From an uncultured Mycoplasmatota bacterium (GTDB lineage Bacteria; Bacillota_I; Bacilli_A; RF39; UBA660): DNA of 45,697 nt. The notes beneath the pieces were generated by a model, which ran no database searches, was not told the DNA's origin, and saw only the letters and a program-made list of their open reading frames with translations. The position numbers were made by a program, and so were the translations under genes. The DNA is taken from NCBI GenBank assembly GCA_946494345.1, contig CAMMBX010000002.1, positions 1 to 45,697 on the forward strand, read 5' to 3'. This document shows, piece after piece, positions 30,201-40,108 of the stretch. Position 1 is the stretch's first letter. Every line of letters starts with the position of its first letter.

Positions 30201-32030
30201 ATGAAAAAAATAATGTATGTAACACTTATCTTAATTATGTTATTTACCTTTATTCCTAATGTATCGGCATCAACTAGTAGTTATATCGTTTTAAATGAAA
30301 ATAAATACTTTAGGGAAGAACCTGGTGGTGACTTAATTATGGGAGTTACTGATGGGGTGTTACTTGCAGGGGAAAAGGTAGATGTTATTTCTAAAGATGG
30401 TAAAAGTGGCTATGGCTGTAAAAATAATTGGTACAAAGTTAAATATAATGATTTAGAAGGATATATTTGTTCATCTAATCAGGCAATTATTGAAGTAGCT
30501 GATGTTGATATTAATGGCAGCTTTGAACAAGAAATGTTAAATAAGGGGTTTAAAGAAAGTTATTTACCTTATTTAAAGGCAATGCACGAGAAACATCCTA
30601 ATTGGATCTTTACACCAGTATCTATTGGTATTTCTTTTAATGATGCAGTTACTAATGAAAGTTATGGAGAAATTAGTTTAGTTGATGGATCTGATGAGAC
30701 CCTTAGAAGTAAGGAATGGCCTTATTATCAAAATGGTGTTTATCAACAAATAGAACCAGGATGGTATGTTGCTAGTAGGGATACTGTGTCTTATTACTTA
30801 GATCCTAGAAATTTCTTATCAGAAGAGTATATATTTATGTTTGAAAATTTAAAATATAATTCAAATATTCAAACAGAGGATGCAGTAAGAGGAGTTACTA
30901 GTGGTACTTTTCTAAATACTAATGAATACTTAAATATTTTAATGAAAACTGCCGAAACTTATAATGTCAGTCCAGTTTATATAGCTAGTAGGATTAGACA
31001 AGAGAAAGGTAGTAATGATAGTATTTCAACAACAGGTGGTAGTTTTACTTTTACAGTTGATAATAATTGTTTAAATAATTTAGGTTATGCAAGTAATCCA
31101 TCTACTTGGAATGCTCTTAATTCTTGTGGTAATGGTAAAACTTATAGTGGCATTTATAACTATTTTAATATCGGGGCATATAGTTCTTATCAATCCCCAC
31201 AAATTAGAGGATTAATTTGGGCTAATGGTGGTTATGATGCTTCTGTTACTACTTATAGAAGGCCATGGACATCAAAAGAAGAAGCTATTATGGGTGGTGT
31301 TGAATATATTGCTAGTAAATATATAGATGCTAATCAAAATACTTTGTATTATCAAAAATTTAATGTAGCACCTTCTGCAGTTTATCCTACATATACACAT
31401 CAATATATGACTAATATTAGAGCTGTGTCTAATGAAGCATATAGTATTTATAAGAGTTATAGAGATAATAATCTTTTAGGTAATACTTATGAATTTCTAA
31501 TTCCTGTCTATGAAAATATGCCTAATGATAATGAAGTGATATTACCTGATGATGAAGAAAAGGAAGAGACAATCGTTACTACTCCTGCTATTGATGTTAA
31601 TACGGGAGTTGTAGGAGCAGGATTTAAGATTGATGGAGATGTTATTTCTAATATTTCATTTAATACTAATATTGATACAATTAATAGTATTTTAAGTAGT
31701 GTTAATGCAAATTTAAAAGTTATAGATTATAAAGATAGATATGGTGTTAAAGCTAGTGGTAATGTTGGTACAGGAGATACTTTGGTAATTAGTAATGGTA
31801 ATACTAGTGTATCTTATAAAGTTGTTATTTATGGTGATAATAATGGAGATGGTAAGACTAGTATTGTAGATTTACTTAGAGTTCAAAAAGATATTTTAGG
31901 AAGTAGTAATTTATCTACTTATGATAGGGAAGCTAGTGATACTAATAAAGATGGTAAAGTTGATGTTATAGATTTACTTAGAGTTCAAAAACAAATACTT
32001 GGTAATAATGTAATAGAACAGGAGGGCTAG
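30201..32030 (+). CDS. Secreted peptidoglycan hydrolase-like protein: signal peptide, SH3b-like domain, glucosaminidase (GH73-like) domain and C-terminal dockerin
   Basis: Signal peptide ending VSA|ST, SH3b-like NNWYKVKYNDLEGYI, and glucosaminidase-like ASRIRQEKG...YNYFNIGA...YYQKFN. Two dockerin F-hand segments: GDNNGDGKTSIVDLLRVQKDILG and DTNKDGKVDVIDLLRVQKQILG. Confidence 0.8.
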   Translation: MKKIMYVTLILIMLFTFIPNVSASTSSYIVLNENKYFREEPGGDLIMGVTDGVLLAGEKVDVISKDGKSGYGCKNNWYKVKYNDLEGYICSSNQAIIEVADVDINGSFEQEMLNKGFKESYLPYLKAMHEKHPNWIFTPVSIGISFNDAVTNESYGEISLVDGSDETLRSKEWPYYQNGVYQQIEPGWYVASRDTVSYYLDPRNFLSEEYIFMFENLKYNSNIQTEDAVRGVTSGTFLNTNEYLNILMKTAETYNVSPVYIASRIRQEKGSNDSISTTGGSFTFTVDNNCLNNLGYASNPSTWNALNSCGNGKTYSGIYNYFNIGAYSSYQSPQIRGLIWANGGYDASVTTYRRPWTSKEEAIMGGVEYIASKYIDANQNTLYYQKFNVAPSAVYPTYTHQYMTNIRAVSNEAYSIYKSYRDNNLLGNTYEFLIPVYENMPNDNEVILPDDEEKEETIVTTPAIDVNTGVVGAGFKIDGDVISNISFNTNIDTINSILSSVNANLKVIDYKDRYGVKASGNVGTGDTLVISNGNTSVSYKVVIYGDNNGDGKTSIVDLLRVQKDILGSSNLSTYDREASDTNKDGKVDVIDLLRVQKQILGNNVIEQEG

Positions 32031-32033
32031 ACA

Positions 32034-33368
32034 GTGATTAATTTTAAGAGAATATTATTTATATTAGGACTTAGCTTCCTTTTCTTTCTGCCTTTTAAGG
32101 TAGATGCTGCTTCTATAAGCATCGCAGGTACTACTTCTACAGGTACAGTTGGAGGAAATATTACAGTAAGAGTTACAATTAATGAGCCTACAGGTTTAGG
32201 AAGTTGGGAATATAGTTTGGATTATGACAGTAGTAAGTTACAACTTTTAAGTGGTTCTACTCATGTTGTTGGTTATGTTGATGGACAAGGAGAAACGAGT
32301 AGGAGTTATACTTATAGTTTTAGAGTTAAAGGAACAGGCAGTACCACTATTTCAGTTGTAAATACTGCTATTGCTAGTTGGGATGAAGTAGTTAGTAGTC
32401 CTACTGATAGTACAACTATTAATTTAGTAAGTAGAGAAGAAGTAGAGACTAGTTATAGTGATGATAATAATCTTTCTAGTTTAGAGGTAGAAGGCTATAG
32501 TCTAAGTCCTGAGTTTAATAGTGGTACTACTTCATATAGTGTAAATGTAGATAGTGATGTAACTAGTGTTAAAGTAAATGCAACTGCAAGTGATAGTAAA
32601 GCTAAAGTCAGTGGGGCAGGAGAAGTAGAAGTAAGTGAAGGTGCTAATACGATTAATGTGGTAGTAGAAGCAGAAAATGGTGCTACTAAAACTTATAAAA
32701 TAGTTGTTAATGTTAAAGAGAAAGATCCTATTAATGTTAAAGTTAATAAAGAAAACTTAAGTGTAGTTAGAGATAAAGAAAGTCTAAATGATTTAATTAA
32801 AGATTATTTTGTAGAAACTACAGTTAATATTGATGAAGAAGAAGTTCCTGCTTATACTATAGAAGCATTAAATCTTACTTTATTAGCTTTAAGAGACGAT
32901 GATGGTAAAATTAAGTTTTATATATATGATGATGGAAATTTTACTTTATATCAAGAATTAGGTAGTGATACTCTTACTGTTCATCTTTTAGATAATGGTA
33001 AATATCCTGATAATTATAAAAAATATACAGTTAAAATAGATGGAGAAGAGTATACTGTTTATAAGATAAATAAAGATAGTGATTACTATTTAGTTTATGG
33101 AGAAAATGTCGAAACTGGTAAAAAAGGACTATATTTGTATGATAGTGTTGATAATACTATTCAAAGATATTATAATGAAGAAGTTAATAGTTTAAATGAT
33201 AGATTAAGGATAAATTCATTTATTATTATTGGACTTATTAGTTTAATTGTTATTATTTTGATAATTTTCTTAATTACATTACATACTAAGAATAATAGTA
33301 AAAGAAAAAAGAAAAAGGAAATTAAAAAAAGATTAAAACAAGAAAAAGAAGATTTTTTAAAGGATTAG
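32034..33368 (+). CDS. Membrane-anchored scaffoldin-like protein: signal peptide, cohesin-like domain, cadherin-like beta-sandwich, C-terminal TM segment and Lys-rich tail
   Basis: Cohesin-like GGNITVRVTINEPTGLGSWEYSLDYDSSKLQLL, and cadherin-like LSSLEVEGYSLSPEFNSGTTSYSVNV...NGATKTYKIVVNV. The TM segment FIIIGLISLIVIILIIFLITL is followed by KRKKKKEIKK. GTG start. Confidence 0.7.
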   Translation: MINFKRILFILGLSFLFFLPFKVDAASISIAGTTSTGTVGGNITVRVTINEPTGLGSWEYSLDYDSSKLQLLSGSTHVVGYVDGQGETSRSYTYSFRVKGTGSTTISVVNTAIASWDEVVSSPTDSTTINLVSREEVETSYSDDNNLSSLEVEGYSLSPEFNSGTTSYSVNVDSDVTSVKVNATASDSKAKVSGAGEVEVSEGANTINVVVEAENGATKTYKIVVNVKEKDPINVKVNKENLSVVRDKESLNDLIKDYFVETTVNIDEEEVPAYTIEALNLTLLALRDDDGKIKFYIYDDGNFTLYQELGSDTLTVHLLDNGKYPDNYKKYTVKIDGEEYTVYKINKDSDYYLVYGENVETGKKGLYLYDSVDNTIQRYYNEEVNSLNDRLRINSFIIIGLISLIVIILIIFLITLHTKNNSKRKKKKEIKKRLKQEKEDFLKD

Positions 33369-35449: not shown

Positions 35450-36937
35450 ATGGAACGAGCATATTGTTGTATTGATTTAAAGAGTTTTTATGCATCAGTA
35501 GAATGTGTTGAAAGAGGACTTAATCCCTTAAAAACTAATCTTGTTGTTGCTGATAAATCTAGGACAGAAAAGACGATATGTTTAGCGGTAAGCCCTTCAT
35601 TAAAACAATATGGTATTCCTGGAAGAGCGAGGCTTTTTGAAGTGTTAAGTAAGGTTAAAGAAATTAATAAAATAAGAAGAAAAGCTAATGGCTATAAAAA
35701 GTTTAGTGGTAAAGCAGTTAATGATGATATCTTAAAGAAAGATAAGACTAAAGAATTAGATTTAATTATCGCTCCTCCTAGAATGGCTCATTATATTGAT
35801 TATTCAGCTAAAATATATAATATCTATTTAAAGTACATTGCTAAAGAAGATATATTTGTTTATTCTATTGATGAAGTCTTTATGGATATAACTAATTACT
35901 TAAAGTACTATAAACTATCTCCTAAAGACTTAATCACAAAAATAATTAAAGATGTTTATGATACAACTGGTATTACAGCGACAGGGGGAATTGGTACTAA
36001 TTTATTTCTTGCTAAAGTTGCTATGGATGTAGTAGCAAAACATACTGAAGCTAATAAGTTTGGAGTAAGAATTGCCGAACTTAATGAAATGTCTTATAGA
36101 AAAATGTTATGGAGTCATGTGCCTATTACTGATATTTGGCGAGTAGGTAAGGGTATTTCTAAAAGATTAGAGAAGTACGGTATGTATACAATGGGTGATG
36201 TTGCCAGATGTTCTATTAATAATGAAGACTTACTATATAAATTATTTGGAGTTAATGCTGAGCTTTTAATAGACCATGCTTGGGGTTATGAGCCTTGTAC
36301 AATAGAGTCTATTAAAAACTATAAACCACTTGCTAAAAGCATTAGTAGTGGTCAAGTTTTACAAAGTCCATATTCATATGATAAAGCTAAGTTAATAGTA
36401 AGAGAAATGGCAGAGTTGCTAGCTTTAGACCTCGTCTCTAAAAAATTAGTAGCAGAACAGTTAGTATTAACTATTGGTTATGATATAGAAAATGTTACTG
36501 ATGATTATAATGGGAGTGTTACAATAGATTATTATGGACGGGCTATACCAAAACACGCTCATGGAACTATTAACTTAGATTATAAAACATCTTCATCTAA
36601 AATAATTACTACAGCGATGATTAAGTTATATGATAGGATTATAAATCCTAAGTTGTCAGTTAGAAGAGTTACTATGGCTGCTACAAAACTAGCTAGTGAA
36701 GATGAAGAAATAGGTAAAGTTAGGTATAGACAGTTAGATTTATTTTCTAGTTTGGAAGGACAAGATAATAAGTTAGCTTATAATAGAGAAGTTTTAAAAG
36801 AAGAAAACAATCTTCAAAATGCCATGTTAAATATAAAAGAAAAATATGGTAAAAATGCTATTTTAAAAGGTATGGATTTAGAAGATGAGGCAACAACAAT
36901 TGATAGGAATAGGCAAATAGGAGGACATCATGAATAA
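35450..36937 (+). CDS. Y-family (translesion) DNA polymerase, UmuC/UvrX-like
   Basis: N-terminal CIDLKSFYASVE motif, SIDEVFMD catalytic acidic motif, and 495 aa. It is coupled by overlap to a YolD-like gene. Confidence 0.9.
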   Translation: MERAYCCIDLKSFYASVECVERGLNPLKTNLVVADKSRTEKTICLAVSPSLKQYGIPGRARLFEVLSKVKEINKIRRKANGYKKFSGKAVNDDILKKDKTKELDLIIAPPRMAHYIDYSAKIYNIYLKYIAKEDIFVYSIDEVFMDITNYLKYYKLSPKDLITKIIKDVYDTTGITATGGIGTNLFLAKVAMDVVAKHTEANKFGVRIAELNEMSYRKMLWSHVPITDIWRVGKGISKRLEKYGMYTMGDVARCSINNEDLLYKLFGVNAELLIDHAWGYEPCTIESIKNYKPLAKSISSGQVLQSPYSYDKAKLIVREMAELLALDLVSKKLVAEQLVLTIGYDIENVTDDYNGSVTIDYYGRAIPKHAHGTINLDYKTSSSKIITTAMIKLYDRIINPKLSVRRVTMAATKLASEDEEIGKVRYRQLDLFSSLEGQDNKLAYNREVLKEENNLQNAMLNIKEKYGKNAILKGMDLEDEATTIDRNRQIGGHHE

Positions 36938-37331
36938 TTATGACGATATTATAAATATGCCTCATCATGTATCTAAAATAAGAAAGCCTATGTCTTTACA
37001 AAATAGATCTGCACAGTTTGCTCCTTTTTCTGCTTTAACAGGGTATGATGAGAAGATAAGAGAAGTCGCAAGGGAAACATCTAAGAAAATAGAATTAGAT
37101 GAAGGTATAAAATTAATGCTAAATGAGAAATTATGTCTTATAAAAAATGATGTTAGATTAAGACCTAAAGTAACAATTACTTATTTTGTTAGAGATACAA
37201 GGAAAGAAAACAGAGGTATATATAAAACTATAACTAGCAATGTTAAAGTAGTTGATGAAGTGTATAAAAGAATAATCTTAATAGATAATACTATAATATC
37301 TTTCGATAATATAATTGATATTAAGTTTTGA
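36930..37331 (+). CDS. YolD-like protein (accessory partner of Gram-positive Y-family polymerases)
   Basis: 133 aa, with FAPFSALTGYDE near the N-terminus and a C-terminal beta-rich region ending FDNIIDI. It overlaps the polymerase gene by 8 nt. Confidence 0.75.
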   Translation: MNNYDDIINMPHHVSKIRKPMSLQNRSAQFAPFSALTGYDEKIREVARETSKKIELDEGIKLMLNEKLCLIKNDVRLRPKVTITYFVRDTRKENRGIYKTITSNVKVVDEVYKRIILIDNTIISFDNIIDIKF

Positions 37332-37375
37332 TTATATTTCTTAAAAAATATGTATATACTATTATTGTATACTAG

Positions 37376-37404
37376 TTGACATTTTTAGAAAAAAATAGTA
37401 TATT
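37376..37404 (+). promoter_or_regulatory. Sigma-A promoter of the repeat-RNA transcription unit
   Basis: TTGACA (37376-37381), a 17-nt spacer, then TATATT (37399-37404). Confidence 0.6.
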
Positions 37405-37431
37405 TATATCACAGATGAGATTACTCATCGT

Positions 37432-37542
37432 GGAAATGTTTTTCGCTTCTGGATGGTGCGATTAATAAATGATTCCAGTCGACAATGTTTTTCGCTTCCA
37501 GGTGGTGCGACTAATAAATGATCCTGGTTGAAAATGTTAAAA
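37432..37542 (+). ncRNA. Candidate type III antitoxin RNA: 2 full and 1 partial copies of a 49-nt direct repeat
   Basis: Copy 1 (37436-37484) is ATGTTTTTCGCTTCTGGATGGTGCGATTAATAAATGATTCCAGTCGACA. Copy 2 (37485-37533) is ATGTTTTTCGCTTCCAGGTGGTGCGACTAATAAATGATCCTGGTTGAAA. A partial third copy starts at 37534. There is no ORF, and the unit has its own promoter and terminator. Confidence 0.7.
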
Positions 37543-37544
37543 AA

Positions 37545-37574
37545 CTTCATCATTTATGGTGAAGTTTTTGTTTT
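37545..37574 (+). terminator. Rho-independent terminator between the repeat RNA and the toxin ORF
   Basis: CTTCATCA / TGGTGAAG forms an 8-bp stem (one G-U pair) with a TTTA loop, followed by TTTTTGTTTT. Confidence 0.75.
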
Positions 37575-37669
37575 GCATGTAAAAAAACAATTTATATATT
37601 GACGAACATAAGTATAATTTAGTATATTTAAATTACATATCATATTTGTTGTTTGGGGGTGTTTGTAAA

Positions 37670-38137
37670 ATGAAAGTTAAAACAGGATATTTATATCATA
37701 TTAAAGATGAATACTTTGATGTTGTAAATGATGATAATTTGATGCAAAATCATGAAAGAGGAAAGAAACGACCAACATATTTTACAATTAAAGATAAAAA
37801 TATACTATGGTTTATTCCTATAAGTTCTAAAGTGGAAAAGTATCAAAAAATAATTGATAAGAAAATAAAAAAATATGGGTTTTGTAATACAATAATAATT
37901 AGGAAAATTGCTGGTAGTAATGCTGCTATTTTATTGCAAAATGCTTTTCCTACTATAGAGAAATATATTGACCATGTACATACTGTTGATGGAGTGCCTT
38001 TAAAAGTTCCTACTGATTTACAAACAGAAATTAAAAGCATGTTTAAAAATATGTTAGGTTTGAAAAAGAGAGGGACTAATTTATTCTTCGCTGATATAGA
38101 TAGTTTAGTGGAAAAAATGTTAAAAGAAAATAAATAG
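37670..38137 (+). CDS. Candidate type III toxin-antitoxin system toxin (ToxN/AbiQ/CptN-like endoribonuclease)
   Basis: 155-aa basic protein directly downstream of the repeat array and terminator. The N-terminal pattern MKVKTGYLYHIKDEYF...KKRPTYFTI...WFIPISSK resembles the ToxN/AbiQ N-termini as I recall them. ATG 37670 follows GGGGG. Confidence 0.6.
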   Translation: MKVKTGYLYHIKDEYFDVVNDDNLMQNHERGKKRPTYFTIKDKNILWFIPISSKVEKYQKIIDKKIKKYGFCNTIIIRKIAGSNAAILLQNAFPTIEKYIDHVHTVDGVPLKVPTDLQTEIKSMFKNMLGLKKRGTNLFFADIDSLVEKMLKENK

Positions 38138-38160
38138 ATATTATAGAGAGGAGATATTTT

Positions 38161-38673
38161 ATGTTTGATTTTTAATATAAAGTTTATGATGAAGTACTGG
38201 AGACAATGAAAAATAAAACTAAAAATATAGAAGTGAGATTATACAACGAAAAATCTAGTAAAATTAGAATAGACGATATAATAAAACTTAAGTTAGCGAA
38301 TGATGAGAACAAATATGTATTAGTAAAAGTTAAAAACTTAATAACGTATGAGAATGTTGATGATTTTTTAGAAAAGTTTGATTTAAAAATGGCGATAAAA
38401 GTACATAATAAAGAAAATGCTCTTGATACTTTATATAATATATTTGTAAAAGAAGAAGTGGATACCCAAGGTTTAAGAGCAAAATATTATGATGATGGTA
38501 TAGAAGAATTATATGATAGTTTAAATAAATTAATTGAAAGTAGAGATTTAGTTAATAAATTATTATTAAGTATAGTTGCAACTAAAGAATCTTTTGAATA
38601 TAATTATGAAAAGAATAATGAACATACGAAAAAACTTTTAAAAAATTATCAGCAAGTGAAAAGATATCAATAA
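38161..38673 (+). pseudogene. ASCH-domain protein gene interrupted by an in-frame TAA at codon 5
   Basis: A strong RBS GAGAGGAGA lies 6 nt before ATG 38161. The reading is MFDF-TAA-YKVYDEVLETMKNKTKNIEVRLYNEKSSKIRIDDII, where KxIEVRLYxEK is the conserved ASCH N-terminal strand. The track ORF starts only at the internal ATG 38206. Confidence 0.55.
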
Positions 38674-40108
38674 TTATAGATTAGGAAATTTAATAATTTT
38701 ACATTTTGTAAATTGTTTAGAATCGATTGCATTATATTGTGAAAGTAATTTATTAGCATAAGTCTTTCTTACACTTTCATAAAGGAAATCACTTTTTCTT
38801 ATAGCAACTGCAACATTTTCTATTGAAATACTGTCAGCCCCTTTTTGCATTGCTATTGAAAATGCTAATTCTAATATTGTTATAGAAGCATCGGGATTAT
38901 ATCTTTTATCGTTATATATATTATGCTTAGTATTAGACGTTTCTATAATATGATTAATAATTATCTCTTGTTCTGAAAAGTTAAAATTCCAACTAACATT
39001 AGTTATTTGTTCTAACTTTTTGATAGTCTCTTCAACAATTTGCACTAATAAATTTTTATTTGACCTCTATCTAAATATGGTTTTAATATATTTGCTAAGT
39101 CAAGAGTATTATGGTTTCCTTTTCCTGCACCTATTATAGTGTGGAATTCAGCTATAAACAAAATAGTATCAGGATTTTTAATTAAATACTGTACTAATTT
39201 TTCTACTTTTGCTTCTAATGCTCCAACAAAAGTACAACCTTGAATTATAGATGAAGTATTTACTTTTAATATTTTTTTGTTTTTTAATTTATTAGAAACT
39301 TGTCCATTCATTATTTTATAGGCAAGCCCTTCAACAATTGCAGTTTTTCCTACACCTGTTTCACCTACTAATATAGCAGATTTACTAGGCATTAAAAGAG
39401 CAATCTCTAAATTTTCTATTTCATTTTCACGACCAATTGCAGGATTTCTTATATAATCTTTATTTGTTAGAAATTCATAGTTTATACCTAGATTATTCAA
39501 AATAGGGGGTATTTGTTTATGATCTAACTCCTTTAAAAAACAGTCCCAATTGTGATAAGTAATATCATCCCTGGTATTATTTTGTATTTCTTTCCATAAT
39601 GAAATAGCTTTGTATAATGTTTCCTCAAAATTTTTATATTTTTCTTCTAGTGATTTTATGATTTCATTAAAACTTAGAAAGTCAGTACTGTTTATATGTT
39701 TTGAACTATTTGCAAAACTACTAAATTTAATACTATCTTTAGCTAAAGTTTCAATATGTTTTTTGTAGTTGATAGCATAGGTACAAACTGATTATAAAGT
39801 TCATTTATTGCTTTAATGTTATTATTAGTATTATTATCTTCATTTGTGGTTGTAGTTAACTGCGCATCATCTGTAATTTGTCTATAGTTATTAATTGAAT
39901 AATATGCTAAACAGGCAATATGTGCTAAGCCTTCCTCAAGAGATAGATAAAATTCATCAGATAAACCTTTTTCAAAACATCTTTCCATTTTTATGTTTAA
40001 TTTATCATTTTCTACAAAGAAAGTTATGATAATGTTCTCACTATTTATAATTAAAGATGTATTTCCATATTTATAAATATTTTCTACAGCTTGTGTCATT
40101 AAATTCAT
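38674..40108 (-). pseudogene. Clp/Hsp100 D1-like AAA+ ATPase with an unrecognised N-terminal domain, split into three frames
   Basis: Fragment A (40108-39743) has a strong AAGGAGG RBS. The frame of fragment B is open from 39791 to 39045 but has no start codon before the TTG at 39500. B carries PAIGRENEI, Walker A GETGVGKTAIVEGLA, and LANILKPYLDRGQIK. Fragment C (39045-38674) resembles the D1 lid domain. The frame switches coincide with an A6 run (39759-39764) and an A5 run (39053-39057). Confidence 0.6.

Follow-up and report, generated by a model that had tools for sequence, protein, structure and literature searches.

The CptIN family of type III toxin-antitoxin (TA) systems has been known since 2012 and its structure was solved in 2015. 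In the systems of E. rectale, C. catus and R. torques, toxicity, rescue and processing have been demonstrated (PMC3401426, PMC4627078). The toxin of Eubacterium rectale, CptN_Er, cuts after the 3' A in GA^AAG, leaving a 2',3'-cyclic phosphate on A45, and the CptIN complex of this organism is a ring of 2 protein : 2 RNA (PMC4627078). CptIN_Er stabilises plasmids, and six coliphages were not aborted in E. coli (PMC3401426, PMC4627078). In the present study a locus of this kind was analysed in the DNA of an uncultured Mycoplasmatota bacterium (GenBank assembly GCA_946494345.1, contig CAMMBX010000002.1, positions 1 to 45,697; this whole stretch of 45,697 nucleotides is referred to as the window). 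The locus occupies the 340-nt interval 3' of a yolD-like open reading frame (ORF; 36930-37331, a weak match to Pfam YolD) and the 155-aa ORF that follows this interval. We consider it, with a probability of about 0.9, to be a chromosomal CptIN-family type III TA module, for which toxicity, rescue, processing and complex formation would be expected from the family. As for its novelty, it is a fairly ordinary member, at most a subfamily, of the known family, and it leaves the broad view of type III TA biology as it was.

A first-pass annotation of the window, made from the DNA letters and a list of ORFs, had read the locus as a type III TA system, with CptIN as the nearest family, and had recommended a hidden Markov model (HMM) search of the ORF. 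The search was run and the CptIN toxin model was matched. Residues 6-150 of the ORF correspond to positions 1-150 of NF047359.1, the NCBIfam equivalog model "type III toxin-antitoxin system CptIN family toxin", with a score of 163.9 bits where the curated cutoff is 90 (E 2.3e-48), and this was the only significant NCBIfam match of the ORF. The PDB sequence search gave CptN of E. rectale (4RMO_A, E 2.7e-20) with 36% identity over 135 residues. The motif P-I-S-S-K of the window toxin aligns with P-L-S-S-R in the catalytic loop of CptN_Er; the triad is Ser52-Ser53-Lys54 here and Ser-Ser/Thr-Arg in the description of the CptN family. The equivalog match above the cutoff, the 4RMO_A match, the alignment to the CptI antitoxin and the covariation of the pseudoknot, the last two described below, together bear out the assignment made in the first-pass annotation. 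Since the toxin is homologous in sequence to 4RMO, its fold is predicted to be ToxN/Kid-like.

Related loci were collected in one scan of species-representative genomes, which gave 280 loci encoding relatives of the toxin; the comparisons below use the best 80 of these, with toxins 70-98% identical. Nearly all of these 80 come from gut metagenome-assembled genomes (MAGs) labelled uncultured Bacilli, Tenericutes or Erysipelotrichaceae. In these close homologues Ser52, Ser53, Lys54, His102 and His104 are invariant. In a comparison of the 330-nt stretches that precede the toxin genes, the same order of promoter, short hairpin, repeats, GAAAAUG stub, terminator, ribosome-binding site and toxin gene recurred in the 80 loci. 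Type III systems were judged according to Blower et al. 2012 (PMC3401426), and type III families are defined by the sequence of the toxin; the window locus has the tandem repeats before the toxin gene, the intervening Rho-independent terminator and also the upstream promoter, which is preferred and not strictly required. Its features, in window coordinates, are the following.

37376-37404, plus strand: P1, promoter of sigma-A type for the antitoxin RNA, TTGACA-17-TATATT, 11/12 consensus positions, conserved in relatives.
37412-37432, plus strand: 5' leader hairpin with the core GATGAG/CTCATC at 37414-37429; indicated by its folding z-score and kept in relatives; it ends at the first predicted processing site.
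37434-37482, plus strand: cptI antitoxin unit 1, 49 nt, with S1 UCGC/GCGA and S2 CUGGA/UCCAG; indicated by Tandem Repeats Finder (TRF), repeat search, pseudoknot covariation and alignment to CptI_Er.
37483-37531, plus strand: cptI antitoxin unit 2, 49 nt, with S1 UCGC/GCGA and S2 CCAGG/CCUGG; indicated by TRF, repeat search and pseudoknot covariation.
37532-37541, plus strand: third-unit stub (AAAUGUU...), indicated by recurrence of the boundary motif; it overlaps the A-tract of the terminator stem.
37540-37578, plus strand: Rho-independent terminator with a stem of 13 pairs (37540-37569) and a T-run after it; the sole such site in the region, with its fold z-score and compensating changes in relatives.
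37599-37628, plus strand: P2, predicted second promoter before the toxin gene, TTGACG-18-TATATT, 10/12 consensus positions, resembling a diverged copy of P1.
37655-37661, plus strand: Shine-Dalgarno-like GGGGGTG for cptN, read from the sequence, 9-15 nt upstream of the ATG.
37670-38137, plus strand: cptN, predicted 155-aa CptN-family endoribonuclease toxin, indicated by the NCBIfam NF047359.1 and PDB 4RMO_A matches.

All elements listed in the first-pass annotation were found, their coordinates agreeing to within a few bases with those that it gave. Its partial third repeat copy exists, though it comprises just the first 6-10 nt of a unit (AAATGTT, 37532 onward), and the 8-bp stem that it ascribed to the terminator is the core of a stem of 13 pairs which includes an A/U extension. 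The second promoter-like site at 37599-37628 was absent from its list.

The repeats were detected by TRF (period 49, 2.1 copies, 37434-37538, 82% matches, score 147) and by a second repeat search (37435-37483 and 37484-37532, 82% identity), and the array ends 132 nt upstream of the cptN ATG. There are 9 differences between units 1 and 2, and 6 of them make up three compensated pairs in the helix S2, changing CUGGA/UCCAG into CCAGG/CCUGG. For the covariation analysis 54 distinct units from the related loci were aligned and the pseudoknot was taken from the window's own repeats; 10 pairs were scored, made up of S1 (UCGC/GCGA, extendable by one pair) and the 5-bp helix S2. Across the 54 units 96.5% of the S1 and S2 cells were paired, and both-sided changes were seen in 7/10 pairs, including all 5 S2 pairs. 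Compensated cells numbered 78, as compared with 21.3 +/- 4.7 in shuffled alignments, and 78 was reached in 0/500 shuffles. In the control, where the 3' partners were slid by 1-3 columns, the pairing was only 22-59%. The covariation supports a fold of the repeat unit as an H-type pseudoknot with the same topology as CptI. The CptI pseudoknot has rested until now on one crystal structure, and these natural RNA variants provide independent covariation support for it.

The 45-nt CptI_Er, the sequence of which was recovered from a cloning primer in PMC4627078, aligns element by element with the window units; AUAAAUG in the loop L2 and the (U/C)GA 3' end are common to them, and the A-rich L2 of the window unit (CUAAUAAAUGAU) aligns to UAUAUAAAUGG of CptI_Er. 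The unit boundaries read GUGGA|AAUG, GUCGA|CAAUG and GUUGA|AAAUG, giving the motif GA|(A/C)AAUG at all three; this motif is similar to the GA^AAG site of CptI_Er (PMC4627078). Processing probably takes place at these boundaries, the position being good to about 1 nt, and the stub would supply the 3' processing site for unit 2.

Among the related arrays 50 consist of 49+49 nt and 13 of 51+51 nt, while a few have three or four units. The S2 sequences of the window's unit 1 and unit 2 recur in 42 of the 50 arrays with 49-nt units, and the exact 49-mer of unit 2 was found in 43 arrays. The unlikeness of the units is kept in 42 species-level genomes; the 2:2 complex might contain them as a heteromeric RNA couple, or the difference might guard against recombinational collapse of the array. 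In two loci with three- or four-unit arrays (L074, L076) the first units are degenerate, e.g. GAATGTGCGTCGC..., and the units are 48/50/49 nt long; these arrays may show array growth and decay.

P1 is the top promoter-like site in 37200-38400. Since this AT-rich DNA shows no enrichment of promoter-like sites in general (10 found against 11.1 expected), the support for P1 comes from its conservation: the exact TTGACA-17-TATATT was found at the equivalent place in 60/74 related loci and a version with one mismatch in 12 more (72/74). Transcription of the antitoxin RNA probably starts near A37411. The leader hairpin at 37414-37429 (-7.6 kcal/mol, z = -2.5) is kept in nearly all relatives with other stems, e.g. 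GCACTT/AAGTGT, CTACTT/AAGTGG and CCATT/AATGG. The terminator was the sole terminator-like site in the region, where 0.1 was expected from shuffles; its stem, with the tail TTTTTGTTTT, folds with -13.4 kcal/mol (z = -5.0), and the hairpin is retained in the relatives through compensating changes. In one related locus (L066) the end of unit 2 is fused straight to the 3' arm of the terminator and the T-run (...GATCCCGGAGTTTTCTTTTG); this locus has lost the terminator hairpin and also the 3' processing site, yet the TGnTATAnT element and the toxin ORF are still present. A separate observation concerns the approximately 30 nt before the -35 box (window 37343-37375, ATATGTATATACTATTATTGTATACTAG), which are conserved across loci with unrelated further flanks and are partly palindromic; this block could be an UP element or an operator.

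From these elements the following mechanism can be proposed. Transcription from P1 would give a short non-coding RNA consisting of the 5' hairpin, the two 49-nt units and the stub, and ending at the terminator. CptN, an RNase of the ToxN/Kid-like fold family, would cleave the precursor behind the A in the GA|(A/C)AAUG boundaries and release the two units of ~49 nt, each of which would form an H-type pseudoknot with S1 of 4-5 bp, S2 of 5 bp and the A-rich L2 loop. The processed units would stay on the toxin and block its active site. If the supply of the RNA dropped or the RNA was degraded, the free CptN would cleave cellular or invading RNAs and growth would stop, with addiction or a stabilised locus as the outcome and phage defence as a possible further one. 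The toxin gene itself could be transcribed by read-through of the terminator, from the predicted P2, or by both routes.

The first-pass annotation had spoken of a leaky terminator. Its leakiness is an assumption, and the conserved promoter-like element downstream of it offers an alternative route for the transcription of the toxin gene. The locus would in that case still be a CptIN system, with an efficient terminator and a toxin expressed from its own weaker P2, two unequal promoters replacing the one promoter and leaky terminator; we place this arrangement just short of an even chance. The element lies between the terminator and the ORF with 10/12 consensus positions. Between the stretches 37611-37646 and 37387-37422 the identity is 75%, with the -35 boxes in register. 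The P2 block is nearly invariant across the subclade of the window (10 loci) while the spacer just after the terminator varies, and in other subclades TGnTAnnnT stands at a fixed -28 from the ATG in 54/74 loci. Among 42 distinct spacers T-25 and T-20 occur in 42/42, A-24 in 41/42 and T-28 and G-27 in 38/42 each, R-29 is conserved and positions -26 and -21 vary freely, which is the pattern of constraint of the Gram-positive extended -10 element TRTGnTATAAT. In more distant CptIN loci (45-46% identity) the distance from the T-run to the ATG is only 16-20 nt, with no such element and no room for it, and in a 2016 review type III loci are described with a single promoter (PMC5086642). On the other hand, in the clade with 39-nt spacers transcription is predicted to begin at the first G of the ribosome-binding site GGAG, which would leave an unusually short leader, -10-like hexamers are common in AT-rich DNA (the above 10 found and 11.1 expected), the loci are related and part of the conservation is inherited, and the spacer element could act at the RNA level instead. 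The sequence evidence thus makes P2 a tentative candidate for a functional second promoter, with the odds nearly balanced; if the prediction is true, it revises the rule of "single promoter plus leaky terminator" for type III systems. A wider proposal, that the clade is a regulatory and structural variant of CptIN, with a strong P1 and a weak P2 after an efficient terminator and with two deliberately different pseudoknots, is conceivable, and we would rather doubt it than hold it.

Several observations weigh against the identification of the locus as a functional CptIN module. The triad Arg is replaced by Lys in the window toxin, and Asp81, Ser85 and Tyr104 of CptN_Er, base-contacting residues which surround the scissile adenine (Rao et al., PMC4627078), are replaced by Gly, Ala and His. 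Because of these substitutions the cleavage specificity of the toxin may differ from that of CptN_Er. The ORF gave no match in Pfam or PADLOC at E up to 1, including the ToxN/AbiQ models, and the repeat region matched no Rfam family; since the NCBIfam and PDB matches are strong, the silence of these databases was not weighed as contrary. The AlphaFold2 model of the toxin (pLDDT 38.3, from a shallow alignment of 29 sequences, all >=82% identical) is too poor for a statement on the fold. The nested minimum free energy (MFE) structure of a single unit was no better than that of shuffles (z about -0.2), S1 being picked in unit 1 and S2 in unit 2, a result which is expected for a pseudoknot, yet it adds no support. 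The first-pass annotation had also classed the locus with abortive-infection systems; no CptIN system has so far shown phage defence, and two systems were negative against coliphages (PMC3401426, PMC4627078). The substituted residues around the scissile adenine, together with the truncated CptN genes that occur in some genomes (Blower et al., PMC3401426), could also suggest a decaying remnant, recognisably CptIN but no longer functional. This is very improbable, as the ORF is of full length when set beside the family model, toxin identities among 80 species-level genomes are 70-98% and the motif residues there are invariant, the His at the Tyr104 position is common to every non-Er relative aligned, including the 45%-identical ones, and the promoter, the terminator and both pseudoknot stems have been maintained by compensatory change. 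A further explanation would make the repeats a cis-acting leader (attenuator or riboswitch-like) or a small-protein gene and give the ORF a neighbouring protein as its partner, in a type II-like manner. A 42-aa minus-strand ORF does overlap the repeats (37425-37553) and a 155-aa ORF does follow the toxin gene (38206-38673), but the unit lengths of 48, 49, 50, 51 and 52 nt among relatives shift the reading frames while the pairing is preserved, the downstream ORF is present in only 3/80 loci and yolD in 7/80, the RNA aligns with the crystallised CptI antitoxin, and the lack of an Rfam match also speaks against a leader; this explanation is hardly credible. The minus-strand ORF was rejected as a gene, the unit-length variants breaking its frame, and neither the downstream ORF nor yolD was accepted as a third component, in view of the same low co-occurrence with the toxin. 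The CptIN-family TA module remains the preferred reading.

In a large protein database 2508 homologues of the toxin were found at E up to 1e-3. We regard the locus as part of a very widespread and well-supported CptIN subfamily in uncultured small-genome gut Bacilli, with ~280 species-level genomes and ~2500 protein clusters containing relatives. Homologues with 31-39% identity were found on plasmids of Clostridium, Megamonas, Planococcus, Oscillibacter and Fusobacterium, all annotated as "hypothetical protein", while the search of plasmids at the DNA level gave no match. The protein search of GenBank phages gave no toxin homologue. In IMG/VR five contigs carry toxin relatives, and four of these (45-46% identity) have 45-46-nt repeats of like design. 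Orphan cptI-like repeats, i.e. antitoxin mimics of phages, were sought in IMG/VR with the conserved core, and the sole hit also carries the toxin; the neighbours on this contig are not clearly phage genes. The toxin also matches phrog_33519 of PHROGs (E 5e-24), a family without assigned function, which means that CptN-like proteins are present in phage or prophage gene catalogues without a functional label. In relatives of window 37517-38137 (P0001, P0123, P0125) the gene callers give a 206-aa toxin with a false N-terminal extension (MILVENVKNFIIYGEVFVLHVKK...); this version reads through the terminator into antitoxin unit 2 and conceals the RNA gene in the annotations concerned. Standard annotation misses the RNA gene: it has no Rfam family, homologous toxins on plasmids are called "hypothetical protein" and the ORF is overextended by some callers.

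The window is chromosomal DNA of low GC content (24-32%), and its genes are ordinary ones for the cell envelope and for housekeeping. Upstream of the module lie a UmuC-like polymerase gene and then the YolD-like gene, and in the relatives the ribosome-binding site is GGAG at -13 to -10. The upstream flanking genes, yolD among them, are common to only 7/80 related loci and the downstream 155-aa ORF to only 3/80, therefore the ~760-bp stretch from P1 to the cptN stop is a self-contained, horizontally mobile module, which is what one expects of a TA system. As to the surroundings, at window 35450-37331 the UmuC-like Y-family polymerase gene (IMS domains, E 9e-28) has an 8-nt overlap with the weak YolD-like ORF, and three related loci (L005, L028, L029) have ~1.2 kb of extra DNA between yolD and cptIN. 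On the minus strand at 38674-39500 two short adjacent ORFs of 151 aa and 123 aa were found; in the former there is a Walker A region of Clp/AAA type (Pfam AAA, E 7e-11), but it is far too short for a Clp ATPase and looks like a split or truncated AAA+ gene. Further away, at 30201-33368, a 609-aa protein has type I dockerin and SH3 domains and the next protein a cadherin-like domain, which are unexpected in a MAG of small-genome, Mollicutes-like gut Bacilli.

In comparison with the known systems, the locus stands closest to CptIN of E. rectale (PDB 4RMO; PMC4627078) and the cptIN family (PMC3401426), with which it shares a homologous toxin, the motif P-(I/L)-S-S-(K/R) being common to the window toxin and CptN_Er, and the order of promoter, about two tandem repeats, terminator and toxin gene, on the chromosome and in Firmicutes. 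The order of the RNA elements is also that of CptI_Er: 5' tail, S1, short L1, S2, S1', A-rich L2 with AUAAAUG, S2' and a 3' end in ...UGA. Units are 49 nt long here and 51 nt long in a sister clade, whereas the unit of E. rectale has 45 nt and those of the 33 founding loci 40-48 nt (PMC3401426); the copy number of 2.1 is inside the range of these loci (1.9-3.4), whereas the unit length is 1 nt outside it, the range being descriptive and not defining. The suggestion of the first-pass annotation that the locus may represent a distinct subfamily is reasonable in the light of this length and of the 36% identity to CptN_Er. The two units of the window are just 82% identical and carry three compensated pairs, while the cptI repeats were reported as "mostly perfect" in a 2025 survey (PMC12283969). 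Further differences from the published CptIN systems are the Gly, Ala and His at the positions equivalent to Asp81, Ser85 and Tyr104, the promoter-like element and 100-nt spacer lying between the terminator and the gene for the toxin, and the host, an uncultured low-GC lineage of gut Bacilli. ToxIN of Pectobacterium and Bacillus thuringiensis and AbiQ/antiQ of Lactococcus have the type III design in common with it, i.e. pseudoknot units processed by the toxin which inhibit the toxin, and a terminator in between; they differ in that the window toxin has no sequence match to the ToxN/AbiQ models of Pfam or PADLOC, that the ToxI/antiQ units are 34-36 nt long, are present in 2.8-5.5 copies and form 3:3 heterohexamers, and that ToxIN_Pa and AbiQ, but no CptIN, are proven to cause phage abortive infection. 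TenpIN of Photorhabdus luminescens is alike in that about two repeats of greater length (39-57 nt), in part non-identical, precede a terminator and the toxin gene, but it belongs to another toxin family, no TenpN model of NCBIfam or Pfam being matched by the window ORF, and it is found mostly in Proteobacteria.

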